NCBI GenBank assembly: GCA_965206645.1
Contig: CBDBKE010000003.1
Coordinates: forward strand, 128,001-192,000
DNA: 64,000 bases
DNA from: Terriglobia bacterium
Lineage (GTDB): Bacteria; Acidobacteriota; Terriglobia; JAJPHL01; JAPKYU01
Direction: 5' to 3'
Shown here piece after piece: positions 18,678 through 33,396 of this stretch. The notes below the pieces were generated by a model that saw only the letters and a list, made by a program, of their open reading frames with translations, did no database searches and was not told the DNA's origin. The position numbers and the translations under genes are program-made. Within the stretch, counting starts at the first letter, position 1. Each line of letters opens with the position of its first letter.

Positions 18678-18805
18678 GTCATTTATCGGCCGCCGCCAGG
18701 AAAGCTTGGGAGACTTCGCTCACGATGCAGTTCATGTTCATTCTTCTTGTCGAAAGGATCGGATCGCGGCGGGGATTGCCCCGCCGCTCTCTGATGCGCG
18801 TCGCA

Positions 18806-19054: not shown

Positions 19055-19731
19055 GATGTGTTTCCTCCTGAAAGTTTAAGGGTTTGTGAGCGTTTCCGCT
19101 CACCCGCAAATGGCGGAAACGGCCAAACCCTGACACGGGAGGAACAGCGCCGACGAAGCCAGTGACGGGCAGGGCCGACAAGGGCAAGAGCGAGTGACAG
19201 ACGCCTGCCAGGCGAGGGGACCGTTCTGGCGCGAGCCTTGCGTCGGAACAAACCGGAATCGGTGAAGGCCAGCGGCTGATGGTGCAACCTCACACCCGTT
19301 CTCCGGTCGTAGGCGGCAAGCCTGCTTGGGGAATCGCAGCCGGGACGGGGCACCTGGAACCGGACGCGCCATGCTCCGGCGAGTGGAACGCAGCGCGAAG
19401 GACGGGAACGGCTCCTTGGCAAAGTGAACGGTGTTGGCCCACAAGCTTCATTTCAGCAGGAGGCCTCGCAAGGGTAACACGCGCATCAGCGAGGGTCATG
19501 TTACCCGCCGCTCGCGATCTTACTTGCAAGCTCCAATATACGGACTTCGATCAAGTGCCCATAGCTCAGCCAACATCTGGCGGCATCCATTCTGGCCCGA
19601 AAGCGGTATATCCCGGGAGTCGGGGGGGGGGCCCCCAGCAAGCATGTCGTCGCGAAGCGACATCATTAGTAGTCCTTCCGCCTGCTGCTCGAACTCGACC
19701 GGTGGATCATAGTTCCGATCGATAATAGCTC

Positions 19732-19760
19732 TTGACACTATTAGTGGATCACACTATAGC
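19732..19760 (+). promoter_or_regulatory. Second higBA promoter with palindrome
   Basis: TTGACA-17-TATAGC containing TAGTG-GATCA-CACTA. Confidence 0.65.
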
Positions 19761-19766
19761 TGAGAG

Positions 19767-20108
19767 GTGATCCAGAGTTACAAGAACCTCGATACCGAAG
19801 CGGTTGCAAACCGCGAACGGTGCAGGACATTCCCCGCGGACATCCAGCGCCGTGCCCAGGCCAAACTGATGATCTTGAACAACGCCAAGAACTTGAACGA
19901 TCTACGGGTGCCTCCAGGGAACCGTCCGGAGGCGCTCTCAGGCGACCGGAAAGGCCAGCACAGCATCCGCATCAACGATCAGTGGCGGATCTGCTTTTTC
20001 TGGAAGCCAGGGAATGCCTATCAGGTCGAGATGGTGGATTACCATTGGGAGCGCAAGGACCTGAGAGCAAGAAGGAGTCAAAGACATGAGCAGATCAGTG
20101 GCGCGTAG
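19767..20108 (+). CDS. higB: HigB toxin with apparent stop loss after DYH
   Basis: DLRVPPGNRPEALSGDRKGQHSIRINDQWRICF...VDYH followed by TGG instead of a stop. Confidence 0.85.
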   Translation: MIQSYKNLDTEAVANRERCRTFPADIQRRAQAKLMILNNAKNLNDLRVPPGNRPEALSGDRKGQHSIRINDQWRICFFWKPGNAYQVEMVDYHWERKDLRARRSQRHEQISGA

Positions 20109-20412
20109 CCGCAAAAAACTACCCCCCATTCACCCCGGTGAGATTCTTAATGAGGAGTTTCTCGGCCCTCTGAAGATCACCCAGTACCGGCTGGCTCAGG
20201 TAATCGGTGTGGATGCTCGCCGGATCCATGCGATCATCCACGGTCAGCGGTCGATCACGGCGGAGACAGCCCTACTGTTCTCGCGCTTCTTTGGCAACTC
20301 TGCAGAGTTCTGGATGGGCCTCCAGAGCCAGTACGACCTGGAGAGGGAACAGGATCGCCTGGCCGACAGGCTCGATCAGGTGCCGGCGCACAGCGTCCAA
20401 GTCACAGCCTGA
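20086..20412 (+). CDS. higA: HigA antitoxin
   Basis: PIHPGEILNEEFL...ITAETALLFSRFFGNSAEFWMGLQSQYDL. Confidence 0.93.
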   Translation: MSRSVARSRKKLPPIHPGEILNEEFLGPLKITQYRLAQVIGVDARRIHAIIHGQRSITAETALLFSRFFGNSAEFWMGLQSQYDLEREQDRLADRLDQVPAHSVQVTA

Positions 20413-20632
20413 TCCGTCCTCACCCAAGGCCGAGTTCCTGAATGTCCTCTCCATGGGAAAAGGTATTGGTGGTTGCCGGCCCGGTGCCCCCAACTCCCTA
20501 GCAGAGGGTCCACTACGAAGTGCTACCGTTCGACTGAATAACGGCGGAGGATGGATCGTTTCATCGCATGATACGGTCGGGTCGCAGCCATGCCGGACAG
20601 GGGGTCTGCTCTGACTTGGGCCAGGATCGCAC

Positions 20633-20706
20633 ATCCATCCCTTCTGAGGATGGAAACGGACGTATCGGCCGAGCCTTGGCGGAAAAAGCGCTTGCCCAAT
20701 CACTCG
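20633..20706 (+). pseudogene. Fic-domain fragment
   Basis: IHPF(+1 nt)EDGNGRIGRALAEKAL, the HPFxDGNGRxxR motif. Confidence 0.75.
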
Positions 20707-21099
20707 TGGGTTGTGGGGGAAAGGAGAAATTGACGCCTCCGGATAAATGATTTGCAAAGGCGAAGAAGAAAATAGGGAGCGGCCACTACAGCTTCGTTGT
20801 GGACCCCGAAGCAGAGGGTGGTGGGTTAGGGAAAGTAGTTCCCCCGGCTCGACAAAGCGCGGCCTAACGAGGAGCCGGGCTATTGCAGATCAAAAACCAT
20901 TACTGCAACAACGTGCTGCACAGCCCGTAGAGCATGACCGTGGCAGCAACGACTGTCAAGAAACTGTCAGGAAACTCGCCCATCAAGAGGGCTAGGCGTA
21001 GGCGTTGCGAGCGAAAGCAGACGCCCTGAAGTTGTGTAAGAGCAACGAGAGGAAGGAGTTGGTGGAAAACCGTGGAAGACGCCAGCCTGATCGACAATC

Positions 21100-21993
21100 A
21101 GATGATCTTCGCTGACCGCCACCTCCGCCGTGTAACCCAGCGTGAATCCCTTGCGGTCGCGCAAGAACCGGCTGTCGGGATCGGTTTCCAAACGCCGCTT
21201 CAGCCCGCTTTTGCGCAACCGCTCCAGGCATCGCGGGATTTCTTCCAGCCGCTTCTCCAGCGCTGCCATCTGCTTGCCGCTCAGTTGCCGGCCAGCCGCT
21301 TCCTCGCAGGACTGCGCGTCACATTGTTTCTGCCAGCGACGAATCTGCCGCCGAATTTTGGCTCGCTCTGCCCGCAACTTGGCCACCGTCTCCACCCGGT
21401 CCCGCGAGGCGTTGGCCGCCACCCGCGTCGAGTCCATGGCCACGTGTCCCAGCCGCCCCATTCCCAGCGACCGCGCCAACTCCACCACCTGTGTGAACAG
21501 ATCGTTCAGGGCACGGGCGTGCCGCGTCCGAAACTGGTTCAGCGTCCAAAAGTCCGGCCCCGCTCCGGCCGCCAGATAACGGAACGCCAGGTCCTCCCGC
21601 ACCCGCTGTTCCAGACGGCGGGCCGAGGTCACGCCCAGCGCGTAGGCATACAGCCACACCTTCAGCAACAGCGCCGGATGATAGGCCGGGCGGCCTTCTT
21701 CCACCTAGCCCTGCTCAAACGCACTCAGTTCCAGCCGCTCCACAACTCGGTGCACAAAAAAACAGATGTGATCTTCTCCAGCACCTCCCGCACGCTGGGC
21801 GGCAGCAGATACGCTTGCTCCGGGTTGTAGGTCAAGAATTTCATCGCGCCTCCTTAAGGCGCATTATGACCAGCACCTCCCGCACGCTGGGCGGCAGCAG
21901 ATACGCTTGCTCCGGGTTGTAGGTCAAGAATTTCATCGCGCCTCCTTAAGGCGCATTATACGTGACTCGTAAAAGCGGTTTTCACACAGACTC
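21100..21993 (-). mobile_element. IS1182-family remnant (left end plus inactivated transposase)
   Basis: GAGTCTGTGTGAAAACC end; YLLPPSVRE, GRPAYHPALLLKVWLYAY, DSTRVAANAS; TAG at 21705-21707; 3'-truncated. Confidence 0.85.
21778..21959. repeat. 90-bp direct duplication (21778-21867 and 21870-21959)
   Basis: Duplicates the RBS and first codons of the IS1182 transposase. Confidence 0.92.
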
Positions 21994-22087
21994 TATAACC
22001 CTGTCTTAGTCTTAAAACCAGTTTCACAGCCCCAGGCTGTGATGTAAACTCTCTCACACCGACTGGTACAAAAAATCGGTCCGGTCA
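21994..22087 (+). mobile_element. IS3 right-end remnant
   Basis: LKPVSQPQAVM* and TGGTACAAAAAATCGGTCCGGTCA, similar to the IS3 at 16414. Confidence 0.85.
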
Positions 22088-22125
22088 ACCTGGCAACTTG
22101 AAATCGGAGTAAGGAGCCATCGCTT

Positions 22126-22839
22126 ATGAACAACGGAAAAAGCCTGGAGCTGCGCTTCCGCGAGCAACTTGGTTTAGCCAAACGGCCGGTGGCCGTAAGT
22201 TTCCTACCAGAGGAGCCGACGCAGCTTCTCCGCTTCAGCGGGAGTGAGCCCTCGGGGTGCAGCTTCTGGCGCCTGGCTGCCGAGGGGCGCACCTTTTACA
22301 CGGTCCCGGCGGACCATTACAACTGTGCGGTGGGCAGCTACACCCATAACTTGGCGCTTCCGCCGGAGCGCGCCCGGGAACTGGACGAAACGCTAGGCCT
22401 GATGACATCGGTGGGCTACCTGAGCCTGGACGAGGTTCCAGGGATTCCGCGTTTACCCCGGACGCCGGCGGCGGTCCTCTATTCGCCGCTGGCCGACGCG
22501 CCTGTGGCACCCCAGGTGGTCCTGTTCGCCTGCCGGCCGGCGGCCGCCATGTTGCTCAGCGAAGCGGCGGCGCGCGCCGGTGCGAACTCTTCGCTGCCGG
22601 CGCTGGGACGGCCCACCTGCATGGCCCTGCCTGCCGCGCTTTCCGCAGGCGGCGCGGTCACCAGCCTCGGCTGCATCGGGAATCGGGTGTACACCGGGTT
22701 GAGCGAAGATGAGTTGTACGTGGTGATTCCCGGTCCCGCCCTGGGTGGCATTGCCGACGCCCTGGAAACCATCGTCTCCGCCAACCGGCATCTTGCTACC
22801 TATGCCGAGGATCGCCGCCGCGCACTGGCCTCGGAGTAA
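22126..22839 (+). CDS. DUF169-family protein
   Basis: LGL...PVAV, GCSFWRLAAEGRTFY, CAVG, GRPTC, SLGCIGNR, ELYVVIPG. Confidence 0.8.
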   Translation: MNNGKSLELRFREQLGLAKRPVAVSFLPEEPTQLLRFSGSEPSGCSFWRLAAEGRTFYTVPADHYNCAVGSYTHNLALPPERARELDETLGLMTSVGYLSLDEVPGIPRLPRTPAAVLYSPLADAPVAPQVVLFACRPAAAMLLSEAAARAGANSSLPALGRPTCMALPAALSAGGAVTSLGCIGNRVYTGLSEDELYVVIPGPALGGIADALETIVSANRHLATYAEDRRRALASE

Positions 22840-22974
22840 CTGGCTAGCGGGGGCCTACCGAGGTCACGCCCGAAGGTCCCCACGTAGCGGTGGCGGTGTG
22901 GCCTCAACCGCCACTGATGCCAGGAACAATATGAATCTGTGATAAGCCCATCCGGCGCTATCACGTGACGGACG

Positions 22975-23062
22975 CGGCTGTGCACGACAGCCAGGTGGTG
23001 GAAGACATTCTCGATCCCGACAACACAGCCGCGGACGCATGGGCGGACAGCGTCTACCAGTC
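22975..23062 (+). pseudogene. IS5-family transposase fragment
   Basis: HDSQVVEDILDPDNTAADAWADSVY. Confidence 0.6.
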
Positions 23063-23067
23063 GGCGG

Positions 23068-23195
23068 GGCTTTGTCAAGTTAAGGCAGAATCAGGCACAA
23101 TTGGCGGATGAAATCACAATATCGAGGGGCATCGCTTTCCAGCTGAAATCATCAGTCACGCCGTCTGGCTGTACCATCGGTTCACGATGAGCTTA
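23068..23195 (+). mobile_element. IS6 left-end remnant
   Basis: GGCTTTGTCAAGTT, then HRFPAEIISHAVWLYHRF. Confidence 0.8.
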
Positions 23196-23545
23196 TGACG
23201 TGACCGGGTTTTTTTGTACCAGGTGAAATGAGAGAGAATTCACCTGAGAAGGAGCCGCGATCATGTCGACGAAGAGGTCTAAGCCGGAGCAGGTTGTAAA
23301 CCTCCTCCGGCAGATCGAAGTGGAGACTGCCAACGGGAAGACCACGCCGCAAGCCTGCCGGGATGCTCAGATCACGGTGCAGACCTACTATCGCTGGCGG
23401 AAGGAGTTTGGCGGGCTGAAGCTAGACCAAGCGAAGCGGCTGAAGCGGTTGCTGGCGGAGCTTTCCGTGGAGAAGCAGGTTTTGCGGGATGTGTGGCGCA
23501 GGGAAACTTCTGAGCCCTGAGCGGCGGCGTTGTGCGGTGGAGCGG
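23196..23545 (+). mobile_element. IS3 left-end remnant with orfA (23263-23520)
   Basis: TGACGTGACCGGGTTTTTTTGTACCA; QTYYRWRKEFGG; GGGAAACTTCTGAGCCCTGAG; orfB lost. Confidence 0.85.
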
Positions 23546-23635
23546 GCCGGGCTCCGCCCTTGACACCGTTTCCACTAGCCCTGATAATCTCCCCATGTAT
23601 CCGCAATTCCGTTTCCTAGGCAAGGAGGAGCAATA

Positions 23636-23953
23636 ATGGGGCTAGTGGGCAAGTTCTCTTTTATCGTCGGACTGGTGATTGCTGTGGCTGGAGGCTTAGG
23701 CTTTGAACAGGCTTGGTTTGGCTGGGTACTTGCAGTACTCGGCCTGATCGTCGGATTCTTGAATATCAGCAACAAGGAGGGTCAGACCTTCCTCTTAGCG
23801 GCGATAGCGCTGATCGTAGCGGCCAACGCCGTCGGAGCGATCCCCTACGTCGGGGAGGGGACGACCCGGATCATCGCAAATCTCGTGCTCTTCCTGGGGG
23901 GCGCGGTCTTGGTCGTAGCGGTTAAGAGTCTGTTCGCGGTAGCGAGAGACTGA
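23636..23953 (+). CDS. Small multi-pass membrane protein
   Basis: AGGAGGAG RBS; four hydrophobic segments, LGLIVGFLNISNKE. Confidence 0.75.
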   Translation: MGLVGKFSFIVGLVIAVAGGLGFEQAWFGWVLAVLGLIVGFLNISNKEGQTFLLAAIALIVAANAVGAIPYVGEGTTRIIANLVLFLGGAVLVVAVKSLFAVARD

Positions 23954-24251
23954 AGTCGCTCTGACGCGGGCGTCATCGAGTCCGGAAAGCTTTCTCGCGA
24001 AAGCGGCGTTCTCACCGAGTCGCTTCCAGCGCCGCCTGAGCCGCGGTGTCCTGGTCATTTGTGGAGGCGTGTGCGGAACCGATTAGCGCTGCACAAAGGT
24101 ATCGCCAAGCGAATCAATACTGCGACACCGTTTCGCAACGACGAAGTCCTTGAAAACCCGTCTGGGCCGGATCGTTGCGTAACCGCTCGTTTTGTGCAGT
24201 ATCTCCGGCCTTCTCCCCAAACGACCGGTAGTGTCTCAGTAGGTACCAGAC

Positions 24252-24729
24252 TCATTCGTCGAACTTGATCTGGTCGGAGTTCTGAAATTCGGCGAGGCCG
24301 CGAACCCGGCGGAAAAGTGACAGCAGGATCTTCATTTGAACAACCGGATTGTCGGTGAGCCGACGGAGATCATCCATACCCTTGAAACCCATCGCAGTGC
24401 CCAGACGTTTAGCGGCGTCTTCCGCAAACTTGAGTTCTTCGAGATTCAGTTCAAGATCGGCCCGCCGGCGAAGCAACTTTCGCTCTCGAGCATGCGTGGA
24501 GATCTGATGGTACGTCTGGTCCGCTTGCCTGATGCTAGTGCAGACATGTCGAACGAGCGCGCTGATCGCCAATGCACTTGAGAGGAAAACCCCAAAATCG
24601 ATGTAGCCTGGAGACTCGTATTTGATAGCGACGATGCGAGGTCGATATTCCTCCGGGACCGAGACTCGAAGGGATTCGTAGAAACCGACGGCACTCCACC
24701 CACCGGCCCACGGAAACACTTCGAACGCG
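24252..24729 (-). pseudogene. Hypothetical protein, 5'-truncated by IS
   Basis: Open frame (FPW.GG.S.VGFY...YESPGYI) running up to the IS end at 24730. Confidence 0.5.
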
Positions 24730-26098
24730 TGTCCCTGGCGAATTGCTAGTTTACGGCCTAATTCCTGGGTTTAGCGGTTCTTGCTAAGATGCTGAGATGC
24801 GCAATCTCGTTATCCTTTTAGTCCATGTCATGGCTACTCTTACCCGGTTCTTGGGTCCGGGTGGCATTCGCTCTGTGATCGCCGAGTCCGTTCTCGCCAA
24901 GCAACAACTCCTGATCCTCAATCGTTCGCGACAGCGGTCACCCAATCTACGCACTTCAGATCGCCTAGTCGCCGGCCTGTGTGCTCTCCTCATCTGCCCC
25001 GCCCGCCTGATCCGCTCAGCAATCGTGCTGAAACCTTCGACTCTCTTGAACTTCCACCAGGTTATGAGGAATCGAAAATATCGCCTGCTCTTCTCCTCCA
25101 AGTACAGAGGTAAGCCCGGACCAAAGGGGCCCAACAAAGAACTCATTGAAGCCGTCGTCCAGATGAAGCAACGCAATCCCGCCTGGGGCTGTCCGCGAAT
25201 TGCTAAACAGATTGCCTTGGCTTTCGACATCCCCATCGACAAAGACGTTGTTCGAAGGATTCTCGCCAGCCACTATCGGCCGAAAAAGGACTCCGGTGGT
25301 CCATCCTGGCTGACCCTCATTGGCCACATGAAGGACAGCCTCTGGAGTATAGATCTGTTCCGGTGCGAATCGGCCACGTTGCGGACCCACTGGGTCTTGG
25401 TCGTCATGGATCAATACACCCGCCGGATCATTGGGTTCGGCGTCCACGCCGGAACTGTCAATGGCGTCGCACTTTGCCGCATGTTCAACCGCGCCATTCG
25501 ATGGCAACCCTGTATGCCCAACTACCTCAGCTCCGACCATGATCCCCTGTATCGGTTTGGGCAGTGGCAAGCCAATCTGCGGATCCTGGAAGTGACCGAA
25601 ATCAAAACCGTCCCCTATGTTCCCCTGTCCCATTCCTTTGTGGAACGGCTGATCGGCACGATTCGACGCGAGTATTTAGATCGCACGTTGTTCTGGACGA
25701 CGGCGGACCTGGAGAACAAGCTGCTCGATTTCAGGACATATTTCAATGCGTATCGCTCGCACACTGGACTGGAAGGGAGAACGCCTGATCCAGTCACGCC
25801 TATACCACGACCAGTCGCCAGGCTCCATTCCTATGGATGGCAACGCCACTGCAGAGGCCTCTATCACACCCCAATGGCTGCCTGATTCTCCAAAGACTGG
25901 TGCTCCCTGTGGTAACCGGCGGACATCGGCAGGCGGGCACTTCCTACGAAACCATTCGCTCTTTGAGTTTGTCAACGCGGAGCGGTTGTCTGATCTGATT
26001 GTTTCGCTGCTACCGAGGGTACTCCGCCAGTGTGCACTCGCCTAATTGGGGCAGCGGTCACGGGTAGAATCGCTCAACATATCAATTCGCAATGGACA
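24730..26098 (+). mobile_element. IS481-like element with integrase-core transposase
   Basis: Imperfect TIRs TGTCCCTGGCGAATTG / CAATTCGCAATGGACA (TGT...ACA ends). Confidence 0.75.
24797..25885 (+). CDS. Integrase core (rve) domain transposase
   Basis: NPAWGCPRI, WSIDLF, LSSDHD, VERLIGTIRREYLD. Confidence 0.9.
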   Translation: MRNLVILLVHVMATLTRFLGPGGIRSVIAESVLAKQQLLILNRSRQRSPNLRTSDRLVAGLCALLICPARLIRSAIVLKPSTLLNFHQVMRNRKYRLLFSSKYRGKPGPKGPNKELIEAVVQMKQRNPAWGCPRIAKQIALAFDIPIDKDVVRRILASHYRPKKDSGGPSWLTLIGHMKDSLWSIDLFRCESATLRTHWVLVVMDQYTRRIIGFGVHAGTVNGVALCRMFNRAIRWQPCMPNYLSSDHDPLYRFGQWQANLRILEVTEIKTVPYVPLSHSFVERLIGTIRREYLDRTLFWTTADLENKLLDFRTYFNAYRSHTGLEGRTPDPVTPIPRPVARLHSYGWQRHCRGLYHTPMAA

Positions 26099-26174: not shown

Positions 26175-26249
26175 TGGAGCCGACGGGGGGACTTGAACCC
26201 CCAACCCCCTGATTACGAATCAGGTGCTCTACCATTGAGCTACATCGGC
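26175..26249 (-). tRNA. tRNA-Thr(CGT)
   Basis: GCCGATGTAGCTCAATGGTAGAGCA-CCTGA-TTCGTAA-TCAGG...GTTCAAGT...GTCGGCTCCA cloverleaf with encoded CCA. Confidence 0.97.
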
Positions 26250-26321: not shown

Positions 26322-27236
26322 TCAGTGAGGCGAGTCCCAGCGGAGGCCGACCGCATAAGCCATCGCATAGTGGAGCGTGTCATGGAATGCGGGCGACAGG
26401 TCGGTCAGTACGCGGCCGTACCACCGACGGGGTCGGCCGGGAGAGCGAAAGCAGGAGCCAGGCTGCAGCATCACTAACCGGCCCTTGAAGGGCATCGAGT
26501 CGGCGGCACGCGCGGAGCCTAGCCGCGGATACTTGACCAGCGTGTTCCACCAGCCGTCGGTCGGATCGCTCTCGTCCGGGACGAAGTGGCTGAGGCTGAC
26601 GAAGGCGTTTTCGAACGGGAGCGGTTCCAGCCAGTCGCAGGTTTCGGCCGGCCCCAGTACTTCGAAAGCGCCTCGACCGATCGCGCGGCGCTTCCCGAAC
26701 CCGGAGCGCCCCAGAGAGCGCAACAGCGTGCCCAGCCGCTCTAGCCACTCCTCGTCAGCGCGGACGTAAAGTGACACGAAGCGCTCCTCCTGCGGGACCT
26801 CAGGAAGCCAAGTGTACTCTTCGGTTGCAAACGGGACGGGACCAGCGCCGTCACGCGGAATCGACGCGTGCGTGGGGCGCAGGGTGAGCCACCAGTGCTG
26901 CCGCGGCAGCTCTGGTGGATAGCGTTGACCCTCCCGGACGGCCACGAACTGCTCGCGAGTGAGCCAGCGCGCCGACTGCCATTCGTTCGCTTCAGCAGCC
27001 GCGCCGGCGTTACCGTCGGGAACCGCACATAGCGGGCGCGGCAGCAGGTCGGCGGGAGCGGCGTCGGAGAGCAAGAAGGGCGGGGGCCCCTGGCGGAACC
27101 GTCCGAGCAAGCGGCTGAGGGCGCCTTCTCCGGCGCTGTGGGCCAATTCCCAACACAGCGCGCCGAACAGTGTATCAGCCTGCCAGGGTGTAGCCCAAGG
27201 AGCCAGTGGCCGAAGGCAGAAGCGCGCCGATTTCAT
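26322..27236 (-). CDS. csm4: Type III-A CRISPR RAMP Csm4 (Cas5 group)
   Basis: QADTLFGALCW, FLLSDAAP, SGFGKRRAIGRGAF, LSHFVP, MLQPGSCF, HYAMAY. Confidence 0.88.
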   Translation of the reverse strand: MKSARFCLRPLAPWATPWQADTLFGALCWELAHSAGEGALSRLLGRFRQGPPPFLLSDAAPADLLPRPLCAVPDGNAGAAAEANEWQSARWLTREQFVAVREGQRYPPELPRQHWWLTLRPTHASIPRDGAGPVPFATEEYTWLPEVPQEERFVSLYVRADEEWLERLGTLLRSLGRSGFGKRRAIGRGAFEVLGPAETCDWLEPLPFENAFVSLSHFVPDESDPTDGWWNTLVKYPRLGSARAADSMPFKGRLVMLQPGSCFRSPGRPRRWYGRVLTDLSPAFHDTLHYAMAYAVGLRWDSPH

Positions 27237-27243
27237 AAGAATA

Positions 27244-27265
27244 GGGCAGGCACTTCCGCCTGCCC
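27244..27265 (-). terminator. GC hairpin between ankyrin gene and csm4
   Basis: GGGCAGGC-6 nt-GCCTGCCC followed on the minus strand by TATTCTT, then the csm4 ATG. Confidence 0.45.
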
Positions 27266-27315
27266 AAAGATGCACTGGGGCTGTCGAGCTTTGCTAGTTG
27301 GCGGCAAGGGCGGCT

Positions 27316-28434
27316 TCATCCGGGAAGTTCGGGTGGCTGAGGCGAGACAGGAGGGTCGGCGGCGGTAGCGGAGCGGTCTTCCTTTGTCGAACGGATAACA
27401 CCCGACTCATCCGTAAAGAAACTACGAGTGCCCGTCTTCCTGTATTCGATCGGACTCGCAGAGACTTGGTAGGCGTCCAGAGTGCCATCGCCGTCATTGT
27501 CACTGGCCACGTGCTCGAAAACGTAGCAGTCCTTTCGTCCGCCAGCTAGGTCGGCAAACAGCAAGTCTGCCCCATCGGGCCCCGGTTCGGTCAGCGCAGC
27601 CGGGACACCACGCGAATATGTGGACATGTAGGTTATGCAGGTAATGTTAGTGACTCGCAGGTTGCCGACAGCCATAACTTCGTTGGATGGTATCCCCAGC
27701 TCGGGGAACTCTTCCACCAGCTCTTGGAATACCAAACCAGCTATCGGCCGGAGCCGCGCGGCAACGACAGGAAGCGACTCCGAAATAAGCCGTGGTTGCA
27801 CTTTGACAAAGCTTTGGCCGACAGGGGATTCGTAAAACTCGGCAAGGGTTTTGATTTCCTCGGCGGTGAGGTGCTTGTCATATATGGAAATCAGAACGTC
27901 ATGAATCACGGCGAACAACTGTGGGGTGAGCTTTTGGTAAAAGGCGCTCATTATTTCCTCGGCTCGTCCGGGCGAAATATACTTCTGTAGACGCTGCTTT
28001 AGTGACTCGCCTGTGTACTTAGATAACTCCTGCATCATGCCCGCAAACTGTTGTTCGCCGCCGGGCGCATTTATCAGACGACGGATGTCGGCTTCTTTGG
28101 AAGGGCTGACTTCCCGTTGTGATGAGGCATCAACACTTTTCCGGGCGTCAGGCTCCGCCGCCACGGTGGCCTGTGCGCGCGCATATTCCTGGGCTCCAGC
28201 CTTCTTTAGCAGTTCAACGGCGCCGGTGAGGTCTTTACTCACCGCGAGGCTTAAGGCTGTCCGTCCCTTCTTGTCTTTTGCATTGACGTCGGCACCGTTA
28301 GCCAACGAAGCCTTGACGGCAGCGGTGTCACCCTTCTTTGCCGCCTCAATCAAGTCTTGATTGATATCTCCGGCATTGGCCAAGAGCGGAATCAGCAGGG
28401 CAATCAGCGAAAGTGCAATCCGTGTAGGTGTCAT
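27316..28434 (-). CDS. Secreted mosaic protein: ankyrin repeats + DUF2059 + pilin-like globular domain
   Basis: Signal peptide; GADVNAKDKKGRTAL; IYDKHLTAEEIKTLAEFYESPVGQ; NEVMAVGNLR...TGTRSFFTDESGVIR. Confidence 0.75.
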   Translation of the reverse strand: MTPTRIALSLIALLIPLLANAGDINQDLIEAAKKGDTAAVKASLANGADVNAKDKKGRTALSLAVSKDLTGAVELLKKAGAQEYARAQATVAAEPDARKSVDASSQREVSPSKEADIRRLINAPGGEQQFAGMMQELSKYTGESLKQRLQKYISPGRAEEIMSAFYQKLTPQLFAVIHDVLISIYDKHLTAEEIKTLAEFYESPVGQSFVKVQPRLISESLPVVAARLRPIAGLVFQELVEEFPELGIPSNEVMAVGNLRVTNITCITYMSTYSRGVPAALTEPGPDGADLLFADLAGGRKDCYVFEHVASDNDGDGTLDAYQVSASPIEYRKTGTRSFFTDESGVIRSTKEDRSATAADPPVSPQPPELPG

Positions 28435-28461
28435 ACTTGCGCCCCTTTGCCGACTGTACAT

Positions 28462-28555
28462 GAGAGTCTGGCCAATCATTGGAAGGGCCCCTTTTTACCG
28501 CCCATGCTACGCCCCGGCCGCAGGCGAGTCAACGCGACGACCCGGCCGGTCGCGC
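28462..28555 (-). promoter_or_regulatory. Repeated promoter/leader element, copy 1
   Basis: TTGACT(28532-28527)-17-TAGCAT(28509-28504); colinear similarity to 39950-40045. Confidence 0.75.
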
Positions 28556-28583
28556 CGGTGGTCTTTTGCCTGCCGCACTTAGT

Positions 28584-29252
28584 TCATACCGTCACGCTCT
28601 CCAGCGTCATGGGGTCCACGCTGATGTTTTCAAAGCGCACCTGCCCGGAGCCCCGGCTGGCGCCGGCGCCCAGCGCTCCAATCTCTTGAATCAGCCCCAA
28701 CCCTTTGCGGACAAACTCCAGCATCTTGACCGGCTCATCGCCGTCGTAGACGTGAATCAGGATTTCCATCTGGAACTCCGCGTCCCAAACGCGCTCCTGC
28801 CAGCGGGGATGATCGGCGGTCCCTCGGTCGCGATCCACCAGGTTCTCCGCCTTCTCCTCGACGAGCGAGCGGCCGGCAGCCTCCAGCTCGTGCAGCTTGC
28901 GGCCGGACTCGGCCGTCAGCGGTGCGTCGCGCACCAGGATGCGCGTGGGAGAGGTTTCGGCCTGAGGCCGCCTGTGGGCACCGAAGAGAAGGCACACCAG
29001 GCACTCCTTCTGGCCGCAATTGCAGGGGTCGCCGTTCCGACCCTTGCCTTCCACCTTCTCCAGCATGGCGCGCAGTCGGCCTTTGAGGGTGGAGCCGGGA
29101 ATGTAGGGCTCACCGTTAATGGGATTGCGGATGATGGTGAAGTCAGCCAAACCGCTCTCTTCCAGCCAGCCGGTGTGGCCTCCAATGCGCAACCCTCCAT
29201 TGGGGACGCGGATCAGCCCGCGCAGGCGCAGGCAGCCAACCAGTTTCTTCAT
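28584..29252 (-). CDS. csm3: Type III-A CRISPR RAMP Csm3 (Cas7)
   Basis: GLRIGG...AD..IIRNP..GEPYIPGSTLKGRLR, C.C...C..C.LFG, TRILVRDA, KAEN.VDR, PR.QERV, LGAGASRGSGQV. Confidence 0.92.
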   Translation of the reverse strand: MKKLVGCLRLRGLIRVPNGGLRIGGHTGWLEESGLADFTIIRNPINGEPYIPGSTLKGRLRAMLEKVEGKGRNGDPCNCGQKECLVCLLFGAHRRPQAETSPTRILVRDAPLTAESGRKLHELEAAGRSLVEEKAENLVDRDRGTADHPRWQERVWDAEFQMEILIHVYDGDEPVKMLEFVRKGLGLIQEIGALGAGASRGSGQVRFENISVDPMTLESVTV

Positions 29253-30040
29253 CGGCGCTCCTTTCTCTGATGCAGCAAGCCCCCGGCGTAGGCCACTACG
29301 GCCTGGAAGTGCTGGGCGAAGGCGAGCAGGGTCTTTTCGTCGGTGACTCGGTCCACGTTGGCCGCCAGGAACTGGCGGAACAACTCAGGGATCTTGCGGC
29401 GCGCCGCGCGTTCAGCGGCGAACGGCTTCAACTTCTGAATCTCGTTCAACACCAGCTCGATCGGCTGGCCGCCGAACCTGCAAGAGGCAACCGCGCGTTT
29501 GACGTGGTTGTGGAAGACGCGCAGCTGGTGCGCCGTAGAGTCCGTCGGAGGCCAGGCGACCCCCTGGGCAATCTGCTCGGCCCAGTGGGTGATCAATTCC
29601 GAACGCAGCGAGCCTGCCGGCGTGAAGTACCCGCCTTCCAGGTAACCGGCCGGCAGGCCGTGAACCATCACCGGAGCAATCCCGCGACCGGGCCCACGTT
29701 CGCGGCCCCGGGCCCCGGGCGGCCGGTCGCGGCGGGGCGGCCGCGCTCGCTCGGGCACTGCGCGGTGCTCGGCCGTCTCCAGAGCAGCTGCTGCGGTCTC
29801 GGCCGGTTTCTCGCCGACCGGTTTTGCGGAGCTTGGCTTCTCGGCGACTTCCCCTGCTTTGGTCGCCGCTTCGGCGGTGCGCTCGGTGCGCACCTCGGCA
29901 ATGCATTCGGCGCAGAGCTTGTGTTGTGGCCGCGCCGGGCGGAACATCTTGCCGCAGCGAGCGCAGGCTTTTTCCGCCGGCGGCTCTGGCGGTTCGGACT
30001 TCACGCCCGCCTTACGAAGGGCATCTTCCATACTCCCCAT
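29249..30040 (-). CDS. csm2: Csm2 (Cas11) with N-terminal Zn ribbon and low-complexity linker
   Basis: CARC-x14-CAEC; then HQLRVFHNHVK...KLKP..A...R...F..F...HFQAVVAY; position between cas10 and csm3. Confidence 0.8.
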   Translation of the reverse strand: MGSMEDALRKAGVKSEPPEPPAEKACARCGKMFRPARPQHKLCAECIAEVRTERTAEAATKAGEVAEKPSSAKPVGEKPAETAAAALETAEHRAVPERARPPRRDRPPGARGRERGPGRGIAPVMVHGLPAGYLEGGYFTPAGSLRSELITHWAEQIAQGVAWPPTDSTAHQLRVFHNHVKRAVASCRFGGQPIELVLNEIQKLKPFAAERAARRKIPELFRQFLAANVDRVTDEKTLLAFAQHFQAVVAYAGGLLHQRKERR

Positions 30041-30055
30041 AATCGTAATCCAAGA

Positions 30056-31651
30056 TCAAGTGGCGGCGTCCAAGGATGCGTACTCCACTAGAAATTCTAT
30101 CCACGTCCGGTCGGAATTTTCATCATCCTTTAGCAGGCGTCCAGCCCAGGCCCGCGCTGGACGGTGCTTCAGGCGGGGGTCCCGGACCGCCGCGGCCAGC
30201 AGCGGGCGCCCGCGAGCTTCCCCTCTTCGGCTGGAGACGCAGCCTTCGGCCAGGCGGCGCAGCCAGGCCCGGGTGACGGCCCGCCGCTGAAGCCAATCGG
30301 CCAGCGCTTTTGCGGTTTTGAGCAACGAGGCCACCCGCCCCCACTCAATCGAGGTTCCGAAGGCGTACAGACGGTTCCCGCCCGCGTCCTTGGCTTGCCG
30401 CATGGCTTCGGTGGCCAGCTCGACGCCGGCGCGCAGGGTCGCGTGGGGCGGCAACAAGCTCAAGCCGGCCGAGAACGTTAATCCGTCGCCCACGAGTGCC
30501 TGGAAATCCTGCTCGAGACGCAGCGCAAGCTCGAGCGTGTCCTTCCAGGGTCCGATCAGCAGCAGGTCATCGCCGCCGCCAAAGACCGGGAAGACCAGTG
30601 GGAAGTCGCTTTGCAGCAGGTGGTGGAGATGTTCGCCAAAGAAGCCATCCAGCAGTCGACTGAGCGCCACACTCCGCTCCGGATCCCCTACCAGGGCGGC
30701 GAACGCCAGGGCAGCACGGTCCGCGTCAGCGCAAAGATAACCCAGCACCTTCTTGCTGCCCCCGGCCGGAGGAGCCAATTCCTCAAGCCTGGCCGGATGC
30801 CCGTTTCGTGCGGGCAGGCGGCGCAACAGCGGCCAGGATTCACTATCGAGGCGCAATTGAGCTGCAAACGCATCTGCCGGGGGCGAAAACTTCAGACCCA
30901 AGCCTGGGCCGGGCAGGTCGGCTTCCGGCTCCGGGCAAAACCAGGAGCTTTCGATGTCAGGCAGGCGAGCGGCGAGCTCCTGGTCGGCGGCGCAGTCCTT
31001 ACATAAAGTTTCCTCATCCCGAACCTGCACAGAAGTCACGGTGGCGCAGCCGGAACACAGCCCGGTGTCTGCGCCGGCAGGGTCAACAAAGGCCCGCCCG
31101 TTCCAACGCAAACCGATGCGCAGGGCCCCTTCCAGCGGTTGCCGGCGGCGTTGCCTAAGGCGCTCTGCCAATTGGTCCCAAGGCAACCGGTCGCCTTCGC
31201 AGATCGCGCCAGCCAAATAAAGTTCGAGTTCGCCTGCGGGGACCCACTGTTGGAACAACCAAATGTCAAATTCGCGCTGGAGCGATTGAAGGGTCTCTTC
31301 CCATCCTGCCTTGGCGGGCCCCACCAACAAGAATCTGCTCGCGGCACGAAGTAGGCAAACCAGACCCAAGCGCTCGGTCAAGCGCCGCGCCAAAAGCTCG
31401 CCGAGCACTGCCGTGCGGAACGAGCGCGCGCGAAGCCGTTGGGCGGCGGCTCCCGTCGCCGGAATCGGCCGGATGACATACCGCTGAACGCCGCTCAACA
31501 TTCCCTCGACCACCAGGTTGCCGGCGCGGACCTCCGCAATCGGGGCCACCTCCGCGGGCAGCGAGCTTTCTCCGCGCCAAATGGCAGCGAACTTAGGCAA
31601 GCCTCGCTGGACTTCCCCTTCTGCCGTCGCCTGCTCGAGTTCCGGTTCCAT
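30056..31651 (-). CDS. cas10: Short Cas10/Csm1 lacking an HD domain
   Basis: SGVQRYV, LRARSF, CxxC...CxxC, ADAD, LSRLLDGFF, VFGGGDDLLLIGPW, TFSAG, AKDAG; 531 aa. Confidence 0.9.
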   Translation of the reverse strand: MEPELEQATAEGEVQRGLPKFAAIWRGESSLPAEVAPIAEVRAGNLVVEGMLSGVQRYVIRPIPATGAAAQRLRARSFRTAVLGELLARRLTERLGLVCLLRAASRFLLVGPAKAGWEETLQSLQREFDIWLFQQWVPAGELELYLAGAICEGDRLPWDQLAERLRQRRRQPLEGALRIGLRWNGRAFVDPAGADTGLCSGCATVTSVQVRDEETLCKDCAADQELAARLPDIESSWFCPEPEADLPGPGLGLKFSPPADAFAAQLRLDSESWPLLRRLPARNGHPARLEELAPPAGGSKKVLGYLCADADRAALAFAALVGDPERSVALSRLLDGFFGEHLHHLLQSDFPLVFPVFGGGDDLLLIGPWKDTLELALRLEQDFQALVGDGLTFSAGLSLLPPHATLRAGVELATEAMRQAKDAGGNRLYAFGTSIEWGRVASLLKTAKALADWLQRRAVTRAWLRRLAEGCVSSRRGEARGRPLLAAAVRDPRLKHRPARAWAGRLLKDDENSDRTWIEFLVEYASLDAAT

Positions 31652-31980
31652 CTTCCAGGGGGACGATGCGTGTCACGACAGTTGAACACGACAGGTGAAA
31701 AAGCACTAAGAGCGGCAGTCTATCCGAGAGACCGGGCTTTGCAAGCCAATTATAATCGTGCCCGAGGAGCCATCTCATGGATGCATCTCGTCTAACAGGG
31801 TCGGGTGCCTGTAAGCCTTCACTGCTTGACTCCTGCACAAGAACAGACGCACAATCCCCGCCAGATGGCCTGCTAGAAGCTGGATTCTCGCCTTTCGCAA
31901 TTTTGCCTGTGAGATCCCGCGATGCTAGTCCCTGAATCCTAAAAGCTAGGGAAGCGAGAATGCGGCGTAAACCTGTCGTG

Positions 31981-33396
31981 ATGCGTAAGGCTAAGATCGT
32001 CGCCACTATTGGGCCGGCTTCGCGCGAACCCCGGATGCTGCGCGCGCTGCTGGAAGCAGGAATGGACGCAGCACGGCTGAACCTCGCCTTTGGGGACCAG
32101 AGCGAACACGCCCGTGTCATAGGCGACCTGCGCCGCCTGTCCGTTCTACGCCAGTGCCCCGTAGCCATCATTGCGGACCTGCCGGGTGCAAAGATCCGCA
32201 CGGGACGCCTTGAAAGCGGGAAGCCGGTTGTCCTCCGGACCGGACAACAATTGATGCTCACCGGTCAGGACCTTGTAGGGAACCGGGAGCGGATCGGCAT
32301 CACCTATGCGCGCTTGGCGCGGGACGTCCGCCCCGGCGCCCGCATCTTGCTGGACGACGGCTCGATTGAGCTAAGAGTTCGAGAAATCCGGCGATGGGAT
32401 GTCGTTTGCCGTGTGGTCAACGGAGGCGCGCTCGCTGAGCGCAAAGGCGTGAACCTACCCCACGCGACATTGCACTTTCCTTCGCTGACGGCGAAGGACA
32501 AAGAGCTGGTGCGGTTCGCTCTCCAGCATGGCGTCGACTACATCGGGCAGTCGTTTGTGCGCTCAGCCCAGAATGTGCGCGATCTGAAACACTACATTCG
32601 CAGGATTTGCAGGGATGGGTACGACACGCCGGTGGTGGCCAAGATTGAAAAGCCCGAAGCACTGGATGATCTGGAGGCAATCCTGGATGTGGCCGACGGG
32701 GTGATGGTCGCCCGCGGCGACCTTGGCGTGGAGATGAGCCTGGAGGAGGTGCCCAATGTCCAGAGGGATATCATCACGCGCGCCAACGAGCGCCGCATCC
32801 CCGTAATCACCGCGACACAGATGTTGCAGTCTATGATTGAGAACCCCCGGCCCACCCGCGCCGAGGTTGCCGATGTGGCTGCTGCCATTGTCCAAGGCAG
32901 TGGTGCCGTCATGCTTTCAGGCGAGACCAGTGTCGGACACCACCCCCGTGAAGCGGTGGAGATGATGAGTAAGATTATTCGGGCAACCGAAGCCGCGGTG
33001 CCGGTCCAGCGCAACCGCCAGCGCGCCCGGAACCTGACCGAAACTATGGCGGAGACGGTCGCCGGCGCCGCCGAGCAGTATCGCATGACGGCTATCGCCG
33101 TCTTCACCGAGGGCGGCTACAGTGCCCGGCTGATTTCGAAAGCTCGTCCTGCCGCGCCGATCGTTGCCTTTTCGCCCTGCCCAGAGGTCTGCCCGCGCCT
33201 GGCGCTTCTCTGGGGGGTGCTGCCACGGCGTATTGAGCGGTTACAGGAAGTGGATCACCTCATCCAGGAAGGACTGCGGCGCTTGCTTCAGGAGAAGCTA
33301 GTCAAGAAAGGCGACACCGTCGCCTTCATTGCTGGCGTCCCACTCCACAAGGCAGGCAACACCAACTTGCTCAAGTTTTACACGGTCGGCAAGTAG
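31981..33396 (+). CDS. pyk: Pyruvate kinase
   Basis: KIVATIGPAS, AKIEKPEA, MVARGDLGVE, ATQMLQSM, MLSGET. Confidence 0.95.
   Translation: MRKAKIVATIGPASREPRMLRALLEAGMDAARLNLAFGDQSEHARVIGDLRRLSVLRQCPVAIIADLPGAKIRTGRLESGKPVVLRTGQQLMLTGQDLVGNRERIGITYARLARDVRPGARILLDDGSIELRVREIRRWDVVCRVVNGGALAERKGVNLPHATLHFPSLTAKDKELVRFALQHGVDYIGQSFVRSAQNVRDLKHYIRRICRDGYDTPVVAKIEKPEALDDLEAILDVADGVMVARGDLGVEMSLEEVPNVQRDIITRANERRIPVITATQMLQSMIENPRPTRAEVADVAAAIVQGSGAVMLSGETSVGHHPREAVEMMSKIIRATEAAVPVQRNRQRARNLTETMAETVAGAAEQYRMTAIAVFTEGGYSARLISKARPAAPIVAFSPCPEVCPRLALLWGVLPRRIERLQEVDHLIQEGLRRLLQEKLVKKGDTVAFIAGVPLHKAGNTNLLKFYTVGK

Follow-up and report, generated by a model that had tools for sequence, protein, structure and literature searches.

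A Csm5-less type III effector kept throughout an order of Terriglobia and a remote cas6–repeat unit as its candidate guide source

The csm module and its setting

The window analyzed here is a stretch of 64,000 nt from a Terriglobia bacterium (GCA_965206645.1, contig CBDBKE010000003.1, positions 128,001–192,000, forward strand), whose genome is labelled G000; other G numbers and L numbers denote the genomes and loci of relatives. Five genes lie on the minus strand in the order cas10, csm2, csm3, an ankyrin/DUF2059 insert and csm4, between a pyruvate kinase gene and a tRNA gene:

31960..33396 (+): pyk, pyruvate kinase, upstream boundary (TIGR01064, 504 bits)
31749..31778 (-): promoter-like site ATGAGA-18-TATAAT (consensus scan 10/12; a pattern match only)
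30056..31651 (-): cas10/csm1, 531 aa (TIGR02578, 200 bits, cut-off 170; PF22335; PF18211)
29249..30040 (-): csm2, Cas11 small subunit, 263 aa (PF03750, 40 bits; TIGR01870, 33 bits)
28584..29252 (-): csm3, Cas7 backbone RNase, 222 aa (TIGR02582, 134 bits, cut-off 90)
27316..28479 (-): insert, ankyrin + DUF2059, 387 aa (Pfam Ank_2, DUF2059)
26322..27236 (-): csm4, Cas5-family RAMP, ~304 aa from its probable start (TIGR01903, 90 bits, cut-off 55; PADLOC PDLC01494, 194 bits)
26175..26249 (-): tRNA-Thr(CGT), downstream boundary (ARAGORN; Rfam, 74.5 bits)

The original prediction was of a minimal, III-A-derived effector with all five frames open, and the family scans and open reading frames agree with it: TIGR02578, PF03750, TIGR02582 and TIGR01903 were each matched and csm5 is missing. 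As had also been predicted, no array, cas1, cas2, cas6, csm5 or CARF gene was found in the 64-kb window. The promoter-like site precedes the start codon of cas10 by ~100 nt. The longest frame of csm4 spans 26322–27275, but since its orthologues begin in the alignment at Met14 of that frame, the true start is probably the ATG at 27236. With the tRNA-Thr ending at 26249 and the csm4 stop at 26322, the gap between them is exactly 72 bp, the figure first given, and the description of the module as host-like in GC and set among core genes was borne out (0.60–0.66 versus 0.61 for the genome). A low-GC island starts at the tRNA-Thr, on the side away from the module.

Inclusion of the insert in the module did not hold up. 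The gene is missing from the same spot in five relatives (G001, G005, G007, G008 and G009), and G003 has a kinase gene at that position. Its GC3 is 0.60 versus 0.73–0.81 in the cas genes, it has a promoter-like site of its own (28532–28504), and its product combines a signal-peptide-like N-terminus, one ankyrin repeat pair and DUF2059. The insert is a strain-specific secreted cargo gene outside the conserved module.

Among the subunits, Cas10 is without an HD domain: it matches TIGR02578 over model positions 230–691 of 753, and its alignment to solved Csm1 chains starts no earlier than residue 219–253 of those chains. It comprises Palm1, a CxxC...CxxC zinc finger with four invariant cysteines (199, 202, 217 and 220), and Palm2, in which GGDD is intact (FGGGDDLLL in the translation). 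Csm2 has a zinc ribbon (CxxC...CxxC) and a disordered N-terminal extension; a helix and the ribbon come first, then ~90 aa of low-complexity linker and the Csm2 domain (150–252). The ribbon occurs order-wide and in the outgroups G123 and L038, and the long linker was seen only within the Terriglobia order under study. Asp37 of Csm3, invariant in 8/8 aligned orthologues, corresponds in solved Csm3 chains to the Asp of the stretch G-x-D-N/S-x-V-I-R-D.

Conservation and selection in the order

Cas10 is present in 10 of the 11 genomes of the order, and the Csm4 profile was matched in 8 of them, including all six of high quality, compared with 9/390 genomes elsewhere in the class. The chromosomal place of the module is constant within the family, and synteny on the thiI side is shared by genus g1 and G006. 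The predicted pyk boundary is correct for G000 (see above), but pyk is not a constant neighbor, not even within the genus: tblastn of the sequences flanking the module in G001 and G003 found no pyk, and thiI is preceded there by a HAD hydrolase or hypothetical gene. The distance from csm4 to the tRNA-Thr is 77 bp in G003 and 3.9 kb in G001.

The values of dN/dS were 0.20–0.35 for cas10, 0.17–0.31 for csm2, 0.10–0.26 for csm3 (0.10–0.17 within the family) and 0.13–0.27 for csm4. The neighboring thiI, used as a yardstick, gave ~0.10, and csm3 is equally constrained. The csm module is under purifying selection, and the comparison of synteny and dN/dS proposed with the original prediction thus did not reveal an eroding relic. 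The four-gene effector is a vertically inherited chromosomal fixture of one Terriglobia order.

A remote cas6–repeat unit

The module had been described as array-less, with a search of the whole genome for arrays, cas6 and CARF genes as a check. That search returned no cognate array or CARF gene, and there is no adjacent array, but it did reveal a lone cas6 followed by one cognate repeat and a conserved spacer at G000:C3:546604-547764, ~390 kb from the csm module. Of the earlier suggestion of a solo effector using a remote array, the remote guide source fits and the array does not, as the candidate source is one hard-wired unit:

G000:C3:546604-546751 (-): candidate guide unit, with TATAAT box, repeat hairpin, tag, spacer and long hairpin

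The cas6 gene matches PF10040 (54 bits, cut-off 25), and its product is 28% identical (E = 1.6e-20) to that of the cas6 directly after csm4 in the outgroup locus L038. The protein occurs in five of the six other genomes of family f1 and three of the four of family f2, and the dN/dS of the gene is 0.11–0.32. Its stop codon runs into the repeat GGTATAATAGTGCCCCCGAAGAAGAGGGGACTGAATT. The unit consists, in order, of a conserved TATAAT box, the repeat hairpin (CCCC-8 nt-GGGG), an 8-nt tag ACUGAAUU, a conserved spacer-like stretch of ~25 nt and a hairpin with a 19-bp stem; a promoter scan identified no -35 box. From the hairpin onwards the repeat is nearly letter-for-letter that of the array (...CCCCGACGAAGAGGGGACTGAAAC) which adjoins the csm operon of G123, the closest outgroup. 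No further copy of the repeat core was found genome-wide in G000 at up to 4 mismatches.

Conserved copies of the candidate guide unit occur in G001, G003, G004 and six metagenome contigs, and a covariance model made from those sequences also found it in G006 (91 bits). The model had no match in the four f2 genomes, which have another, different mini-array, or in 30 genomes from other families, and searches of G005 (94% complete) and G002 (62% complete) did not recover the unit either. It is convergent with rpoD in 10/10 loci, and at least three genera share the lone repeat and its spacer, which keep their place beside rpoD. Conservation of the non-coding unit far exceeds that of the surrounding intergenic DNA. 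In the 19-bp hairpin 99.1% of cells are paired, 26 of them as G-U cells that pair only on the cas6 strand, and the covariance model scored 143 bits in the forward versus 34 bits in the reverse direction; the covariation test of the hairpin was not significant, with one double change and 112/500 shuffles reaching the observed score. The long hairpin could be a terminator for rpoD or cas6. Exact matches to L081:8666-8816, which spans the repeat, the spacer and the end of cas6, and to parts of cas6 occur among contigs from RNA libraries, at a low depth of 2–5 and possibly DNA-derived.

The cas6 of G001 is interrupted by 2.7 kb of inserted sequence with a 464-aa ORF, and one base is gone from the repeat stem, yet the csm genes of this genome are intact, which implies that the two halves of the system may be independent or that the break is recent. 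No target was found for the spacer; its only perfect complement in G000 lies on the other strand of the unit, in the region downstream of rpoD. As judged from sequence, the remote cas6–repeat unit most likely supplies a single fixed crRNA.

Other CRISPR-Cas genes as possible sources of guides

Alternatively, the effector could be an ordinary immune type III complex that obtains its crRNAs in trans, from a I-D array through the same Cas6 or from the I-E array on contig C4, the lone repeat being a degraded leftover. Type III systems are reported to use type I crRNAs. A complete type I-D locus (cas6, cas10d, csc2, csc1, cas3, cas1, cas2, cas4 and a 14-repeat array) is indeed present in G008 (f2), its repeats are of the same family as the guide-unit repeat (...CCCCGATGTGAAGGGGACTGAAAC), and both G007 and G008 have Cas1. 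In addition, in the part of their study that we draw on, Shmakov et al. (10.1101/2023.03.03.530964) took type III mini-arrays for degraded repeats. However, whole-genome scans identified no array of the guide-unit repeat family in G000, and its only array, on C4, has I-E repeats with two spacers and lies beside an IS-truncated cas1e–cas2e remnant, with no Cas6e found in the order's genomes. Cas1 was found in none of the six other f1 genomes. The persistence of one repeat and spacer beside rpoD in several genera is also not how immune spacers behave. The lack of HD, CARF and, in many members, GGDD leaves the system without the outputs usual in type III immunity. Given these points, we regard supply in trans as unlikely. 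No other crRNA-binding effector was found in G000, where PF03787 matched only csm3 and tblastn with the I-D proteins of G008 matched only cas6 and a generic helicase region.

Cyclase motif and signalling effectors

The second option originally proposed was a domesticated complex for RNA sensing or signalling. The GGDD motif, with its flanking Palm2 residues intact, is kept in four of nine order genomes (G000, G001, G006 and G009) and lost in five, including G003, which belongs to the same genus as G000 and has a Cas10 74% identical to that of G000. A profile search for TIGR02710 CARF proteins had no match in the 11 order genomes, a search for Csm6 had none either, and tblastn with six outgroup CARF queries gave a best E of 0.33 in G000. 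Searches for SAVED and PF09651 were likewise without a match, but these two results are uninformative, as their controls matched in no genome. The signalling option is weakened by the loss of GGDD in 5/9 orthologues and by the failure to find a CARF gene in the order. Because GGDD has been lost in these five genomes while the csm genes are under purifying selection, the conserved function cannot need the cyclase.

The complex of G000 itself might still act as a cyclic-oligoadenylate sensor with a receptor outside the known CARF/SAVED families, perhaps encoded elsewhere. Such a role would fit the four intact motifs and the outgroups, in which GGDD is kept in 8/8 Cas10 proteins and the eight loci include five with a TIGR02710-type CARF gene, one (G123) with an array and a gene for a Csx3-like ring nuclease, one with cas6, cas1 and an array, and one with an RT-Cas1 gene. 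Set against it are the losses under continued selection, one of them within the genus, and the searches with TIGR02710, Csm6 and outgroup CARF proteins, all without a match, and we consider it rather improbable. Last, a functionless relic, with the csm operon and the cas6–repeat unit slowly decaying from an ancestral I-D and III pair, would account for the loss of HD, csm5, CARF, array and adaptation genes, the decay of GGDD, the apparent frameshifts in csm4 of G005 and csm3 of G008, the split cas6 of G001 and the foreign genes between csm3 and csm4 in two genomes, but it is very unlikely given dN/dS far below 1 for the four csm genes and cas6 at dS up to and above 1, frames intact in most genomes of two families, a csm3 as constrained as thiI, and a non-coding unit much better conserved than nearby intergenic DNA.

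Proposed function

The explanation that we prefer, with a probability of a little over one half, is a non-adaptive, single-guide, RNA-targeting Csm complex, that is, a split and reduced type III system that has probably been domesticated and whose effector half is the part encoded in the window. HD-less Cas10, zinc-ribbon Csm2, several copies of Csm3 and Csm4 would form a Csm-type ribonucleoprotein whose crRNA comes from the one hard-wired unit ~390 kb away and not from an array. Cas6 would cleave the repeat hairpin at its base, leaving a crRNA with the 8-nt tag to be loaded on Csm4 and Csm3; the complex would then bind complementary RNA, and Csm3 would cleave it. Cas10 would serve mainly as a scaffold, given its missing HD, the failure to find a CARF gene and the order-wide decay of GGDD, a motif that G000 still has. 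Conservation of the spacer between genera, together with the failure to find adaptation genes in the family, speaks against adaptive immunity; most likely the system performs one constant task for the host, for instance controlling RNA or permanently blocking a single target. An effector handed down like a housekeeping gene in one order of soil Acidobacteria, with a minimal composition and an apparently fixed guide, suggests the recruitment of an immune system for a host function.

Comparison with known systems

Compared with the solved III-A complexes of Streptococcus thermophilus, Staphylococcus epidermidis, Thermococcus onnurineus and Lactococcus lactis, the order's module has the Cas10 Palm domains and zinc finger, Csm2, Csm3 with its catalytic Asp and Csm4, in the same gene order, and a repeat with a small GC stem-loop followed by an 8-nt ACUGAA-type tag. 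It differs from them in being without HD, Csm5, Csm6 or another CARF protein, adjacent array, cas1 and cas2, in the placing of cas6 390 kb off and of one fixed repeat–spacer unit where an array would be, in a cyclase motif that is dispensable in the clade, and in vertical inheritance across a whole order.

The array-bearing acidobacterial relatives (G123 with locus L076, Bryobacterales L032–L036, G196, G262 and G115) have in common with it a four-gene effector without Csm5 and a mostly HD-less Cas10 of 450–610 aa; their Csm3 is 33–50% and their Csm4 33–41% identical. The zinc ribbon of Csm2 is also present in G123 and L038, G123 shares the repeat, and L038 has a homologous cas6 beside csm4. 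Unlike the order's module, these relatives keep GGDD (8/8) and a TIGR02710-type CARF or Csx3-like gene after csm4, have real arrays in 5/11 flanks (L032, L034, L038, G123 and G115) and, in some cases, cas1, cas2 or cas4, and their loci are scattered across the class.

[quoted passage not shown] According to these, the III-G locus is without an array and its crRNAs are thought to be recruited in trans, and III-G and III-H, with an apparently active HD and the Cas7 catalytic Asp lost, are predicted DNA cutters. The order's module is the reverse, having no HD and an invariant Asp in Cas7 (Csm3). Its separate Csm2 also sets it apart from III-H, which has Cas11 fused into Cas10, from III-G, which has Csx26, and from III-A2, which has no Cas11, as these types are characterized in the same sections (PMC12669027).

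The closest likeness of the guide unit is to the CRISPR repeat-like regulatory RNAs and mini-arrays of Shmakov et al. (10.1101/2023.03.03.530964), in which, in the portion of the study considered, a stand-alone repeat or a mini-array of one spacer lies by a cas gene and not within an array, the spacer is conserved and a non-immune role is expected. The cases described there belong to type I or type V loci, where partial matches of the spacer lead to repression of cas promoters. For type III, the same portion reports no conserved positions, enriched Cas10 clades or targets, and mini-arrays were judged degraded. In contrast, the unit described here is conserved across genera and tied to rpoD, and it would serve a type III effector that is otherwise guide-less.

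Organization and neighborhood of the csm module

ORF calling showed that positions 26322-31651 of the window are filled by five consecutive ORFs on the minus strand, which were assigned as listed below.

Features of the csm module (window 26322-31651) and its immediate neighbors
pyk: upstream of cas10
cas10/Csm1, minus strand: TIGR02578, 200 bits (cut-off 170); PF22335, 74 bits
csm2 (Cas11 small subunit), minus strand: PF03750, 40 bits (cut-off 24.8); TIGR01870, 33 bits (cut-off 30.6)
csm3 (Cas7), minus strand: TIGR02582, 134 bits
insert between csm3 and csm4, minus strand: ankyrin and DUF2059 protein, 387 aa
csm4 (Cas5), minus strand: TIGR01903, 90 bits (cut-off 55); PADLOC Csm4, 194 bits
tRNA-Thr(CGT): 72 bp past csm4

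The original prediction had described these five ORFs, their families, their bounds at pyk and the tRNA gene and a host-like GC content, all of which we confirmed; the sole adjustment concerns csm4, whose start is most likely the conserved Met at 27236. The Cas10 protein is short (531 aa versus about 750-800 aa), the Csm1 model (TIGR02578) matched it only from position 230 of 753, and its alignment to solved Csm1 chains begins only at chain residue 219-253; based on where these matches start, the HD nuclease domain is absent. Its zinc-finger cysteines are invariant in the orthologue alignment and, in the source genome (G000), its GGDD motif is intact. From its N-terminus, Csm2 (263 aa) has a helix, a zinc ribbon of the CxxC...CxxC type, ~90 residues of low-complexity linker and the Csm2 domain. 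In alignments with solved Csm3 proteins, Asp37 of Csm3 falls in their catalytic stretch, and it is invariant in all eight orthologues aligned; we take it to be the equivalent of D32/D33 of the studied enzymes, with which the alignment to the solved chains agrees.

The protein encoded between csm3 and csm4 has a signal peptide, its gene has a GC3 of 0.60 versus 0.73-0.81 for the cas genes, and it is missing in G001, G005, G007, G008 and G009. Since it is strain-specific, secreted and lower in GC3, it was ruled out as an accessory effector. At the same junction in G003, a genome of the same genus, there are an 83-aa ORF and a gene for an 832-aa Ser/Thr kinase-TPR protein that is 48% identical to the product of a kinase gene at window 38236-39678. 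The csm3-csm4 gap (window 27237-28583; L018:10871-13663 in G003) therefore holds different foreign genes in two genomes of one genus, and may be an insertion hotspot. The kinase of the window (36966-39678, minus strand), which carries WD40/PD40 repeats, is present as two ORFs of 480 and 422 aa in different frames with a break at ~38235; the counterpart in G001 is a single 879-aa ORF, and the split represents either a frameshift or an assembly error.

Related loci were retrieved with the Csm4 alignment, and their ORFs were chosen by our own GC3-based gene calls. The gene pyk, whose synteny with the module had been proposed as a check, proved not to be a conserved neighbor. Within the family of the source genome (f1) the place of the module is kept, with thiI and an acyl-CoA carboxyltransferase gene adjoining it; adjacency to tRNA-Thr or ThiI was ruled out as functional because it is lost outside the genus. 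In the second family of the order (f2), a LuxR-type response regulator is always next after csm4, and the module is tightly packed against its neighbors with gaps of 47-67 bp. On the other side of tRNA-Thr, the window at ~6000-26000 has a lower GC content (0.55-0.59) and contains an IS481/IS3-like transposase (24797-25885) and a second rve-like ORF (16452-17465). At 21778-21960 (G000:C3:149778-149960), ~90 nt are perfectly duplicated in tandem (period 92). The low-GC stretch looks like an island integrated at tRNA-Thr, as had been assumed.

A lone cas6 gene and a single repeat-spacer unit

Scanning the module and both flanks for repeats and Rfam families gave nothing beyond the tRNA, repeats at the level of chance and a sub-threshold CRISPR-DR20 match inside the kinase gene (window 38954-38990, minus strand; 28 bits versus a gathering score of 42), which is probably due to chance. 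Across the whole source genome (4.41 Mb in 4 contigs, 97.9% complete), k-mer scans detected one CRISPR array only, with three I-E-type repeats and two spacers (G000:C4:1993814-1993965). It lies outside the window in a type I-E remnant (G000:C4:1993121-1993965; L004:15122-15966) comprising an intact cas2e and the C-terminal 128 aa of cas1e, truncated by an IS3-family transposase. Given that no Cas6e or Cascade genes were found in G000 and that the repeat family is different, this array was ruled out as the guide source. The array scan also flagged runs with a period of 108 nt at G000:C3:292281-294706 and several sites on contig C4, with up to 23.6 copies; these were rejected on their 36-codon period and sequence, are presumably Sel1-type protein repeats, and illustrate how such repeats mimic arrays in simple CRISPR scans. 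Also set aside was a 16-nt microsatellite, (AGCCTGGTTGAGCTA)n, of ~6 copies (G000:C3:544438-544540; L081:6439-6541), located between dnaG, whose stop codon it directly follows, and rpoD farther downstream.

A cas6 gene surfaced solely via tblastn with an outgroup protein. The 324-aa protein encoded after csm4 in L038, a csm locus beyond the order, matched G000:C3:546811-547701 (E = 1.6e-20), and both sequences belong to PF10040 Cas6 (54 bits for that of G000). The PF01881 Cas6 profile had no match in 41 genomes, though its control was positive in only 4 of 14. The lone cas6 is positioned between rpoD and an AAA_33 kinase/acyl-CoA dehydrogenase cluster, a synteny common to G000, G001, G003 and G004; the protein is present in five of the six other f1 genomes and three of the four f2 genomes, and the dN/dS of the gene is 0.11-0.32. 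The cas6 stop codon leads straight into GGTATAATAGTGCCCCCGAAGAAGAGGGGACTGAATT; in this stretch, both the hairpin and the tag at the 3' end are almost identical to the repeat (GTTGAAGAGGCATCCCCGACGAAGAGGGGACTGAAAC) of an array that adjoins the csm operon of the outgroup genome G123. The repeat core has a single copy in G000, and is followed by a conserved stretch of ~25 nt and then by a hairpin with a 19-bp stem. The original prediction had noted neither an array nor cas6 and had proposed a remote array as one option. Neither is in the locus itself; elsewhere in G000 no multi-repeat array of this repeat family was found, but a PF10040 cas6 with one repeat-spacer is located 390 kb away.

The unit of repeat, spacer and hairpin is far more conserved than the intergenic DNA around it. 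It was also identified in G001, G003, G004 and six metagenome contigs; an exact pattern for it had no match in G002, G005, G006, G009, G010 or G007, and a covariance model built from the unit sequences recovered that of G006 as well (91 bits). The same model detected none in the four f2 genomes and none in 30 genomes of other families of the class. In the long hairpin 99.1% of cells are paired, and there are 26 G-U cells, which are mismatched on the opposite strand; a formal covariation test was not significant, with one double change and the observed score reached by 112 of 500 shuffles. A TATAAT box is invariant or nearly so, and a promoter scan found no -35 box at the unit. Two RNA libraries contained low-depth contigs exactly matching the repeat-spacer junction and parts of cas6, which we regard as weak support for the unit, these runs being stored contigs in which uncovered parts of the locus say nothing either way. 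In G001 an insertion of 2.7 kb (L099:7446-10169, contig C10) with a 464-aa ORF, possibly a transposase, interrupts the cas6 gene after residue 182-188; the adjacent repeat stem has lost one C, and the csm operon is intact.

Based on this arrangement, we propose that Cas6 would cut the unit to leave a crRNA with ACUGAAUU as its 5' end, that this crRNA would load into the Csm complex, and that Csm3 would then cut RNA complementary to the spacer. An alternative is that the module uses ordinary arrays in trans. All of the genomes are metagenome-assembled, and arrays in such genomes often fail to assemble; G000 alone was scanned in its entirety, the relatives being scanned in the fetched flanks. 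The f2 genome G008 carries a type I-D locus that is complete, including cas6 and an array whose 14 repeats belong to the repeat family of the unit. The whole-genome scans of G000, which found no multi-repeat array of the cas6-linked repeat family, make this alternative unlikely.

In both G007 and G008 there is a second cas6, standing alone, with a mini-array of the form repeat-spacer-repeat after it (L098:6740-7440, contig C16 of G007; L101:6880-7470, contig C3 of G008), at one copy per genome. The two genomes share its conserved spacer of ~37 nt, TCACYTGRACCTTCGTTTTTGAAGGTGTATTCGGACT, within which is a 6-bp hairpin. From the I-D locus of G008 and these f2 mini-arrays with their lone cas6 genes, it is likely that in the ancestor of the order the four-gene Csm module worked in trans alongside a type I-D system. 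The I-D effector and adaptation genes would later have been dropped in family f1, which retained cas6 and one repeat-spacer unit; no I-D effector gene was found in G000.

Decay of the signaling output

The closest relatives beyond the order (G123, G196, G262, G115 and loci L032-L038) have the same four genes without csm5. In seven of these outgroup loci a TIGR02710-type CARF gene follows csm4, and in G123 csm4 is followed by a 257-aa gene and a Csx3-like gene. CRISPR arrays are present in five of the 11 fetched outgroup flanks (L032, L034, L038, G123 and G115), and cas1, cas2 or cas4 genes in some. The lack of csm5 and of a CARF effector, originally noted for the window, was borne out by wider searches: in the whole of G000 the sole match of the csm5 model TIGR01899 covered 19 residues of csm3 and, at 18 bits, was under the cut-off, and PF03787, searched for further RAMP genes, matched csm3 alone. 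The array-bearing outgroups likewise lack csm5. TIGR02710 CARF proteins were found in none of the 11 genomes of the order, no Csm6 (TIGR02672) was found, and tblastn of the outgroup CARF proteins against G000 yielded no homologue (best E-value 0.33). Searches for SAVED and PF09651 had no match and were uninformative because their controls were silent too.

The GGDD motif is kept in all eight aligned outgroup Cas10 proteins. Inside the order it is kept in four of nine genomes (G000, G001, G006 and G009), and most metagenomic members are also without it. The loss of the CARF partner was therefore accompanied by repeated decay of the cyclase site, with Csm3 staying tightly constrained. Residual cOA signaling, for which the intact motif in those four genomes would speak, is rather improbable in view of this decay and of the CARF and Csm6 searches. 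As judged from its genes, the only known immune output that the module appears to retain is the cutting of RNA by Csm3.

Distribution and selection

The relatives fall in the Acidobacteriota, class Terriglobia. The Cas10 protein was identified in 10 of the 11 genomes of the order, the sole miss being a genome that is 72% complete, and the Csm4 profile in eight of the 11, including all six of high quality, these counts being drawn from related genomes that are not independent samples. Beyond the order, the Csm4 profile matched nine of 390 genomes in a 401-genome sample of the class, at 52-253 bits compared with 413-535 bits inside the order. Pairwise dN/dS values were 0.20-0.35 for cas10, 0.17-0.31 for csm2, 0.10-0.26 for csm3 and 0.13-0.27 for csm4; thiI, used as a comparison gene, was at ~0.10. 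The module is thus not the eroded locus under relaxed selection that had been raised as a refuting case, and a functionless relic, for which the apparent frameshifts of csm4 in G005 and csm3 in G008 might be cited, is very improbable. Normally, CRISPR-Cas loci are mobile, patchy in distribution and quick to change; the type III effector described here behaves across an entire bacterial order like a set of core genes, apparently with one fixed guide RNA and a lone Cas6 at its service, each located among housekeeping genes.

The spacer and rpoD

The best match of the spacer in trans in G000 was 23 of 36 positions, which is no better than shuffled spacers (23-25), so a trans target in this genome was rejected. 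Three spacer patterns searched in viral contigs each had zero exact matches. The only perfect complement of the spacer in G000 is the opposite strand of the unit, downstream of rpoD. The unit is convergent with rpoD in all 10 loci with a visible flank (G000, G001, G003, G006 and L104-L109), and the adjacency holds even where cas6 sits elsewhere. The unit would be transcribed convergently with rpoD and just downstream of it, so that its crRNA would be perfectly antisense to rpoD read-through transcripts. It may be that cis-antisense pairing with such transcripts gives the adjacency a function, or that the synteny is simply inherited.

Any host target is speculative. We put at roughly 15% the probability of a domestication in which the type III effector came to control the housekeeping sigma factor post-transcriptionally. 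If so, the Csm complex, having neither HD domain nor cOA output, would bind the 3' end of rpoD mRNA and cut it via Csm3, and this cutting would tune sigma-70 levels; a fixed target in the host, together with a conserved physiological role, would then be seen for the first time in a type III system.

Implications and comparison with known systems

If confirmed, the fixed-guide arrangement would show clearly that a class 1 CRISPR complex that targets RNA can be turned in nature to a non-adaptive host function, and would make the regulatory role of such exapted systems testable. It would also provide an RNA-targeting complex that is compact, with four proteins and a single guide, and free of collateral signaling. 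Our results also indicate that "array-less" loci deserve a genome-wide check for lone repeats and lone cas6 genes. In the literature searched, no type III module that spans an order and combines a lone cas6 with a fixed guide was described; the clade may be listed in supplementary tables.

According to Shmakov et al. 2023 (10.1101/2023.03.03.530964), mini-arrays near type III loci are not conserved, are without targets and are probably degraded. Regulatory cr-like RNAs consist of a stand-alone repeat by a cas gene with a spacer partly matching a cas promoter. In the unit described here a stand-alone repeat is present beside cas6, and the spacer has no match in trans in G000 above the level of shuffles. 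As characterized by Makarova et al. 2025 (PMC12669027), the HD domain of types III-G and III-H is active, their cyclase is inactive and their Cas7 Asp is not conserved, whereas our module is without HD and its Cas7 Asp is invariant; the same study gives III-A2 as having no identifiable Cas11, and the module has Csm2. The closest likeness is to type III-A, with which it shares a Cas10 with Palm (cyclase) domains, Csm2, a Csm3 with the catalytic Asp, and Csm4. It differs from type III-A in having no HD domain on Cas10, no Csm5 and no cOA-activated CARF effector that we could find. Its cas6 and its putative crRNA source are outside the locus, the latter consisting of one repeat and one spacer.
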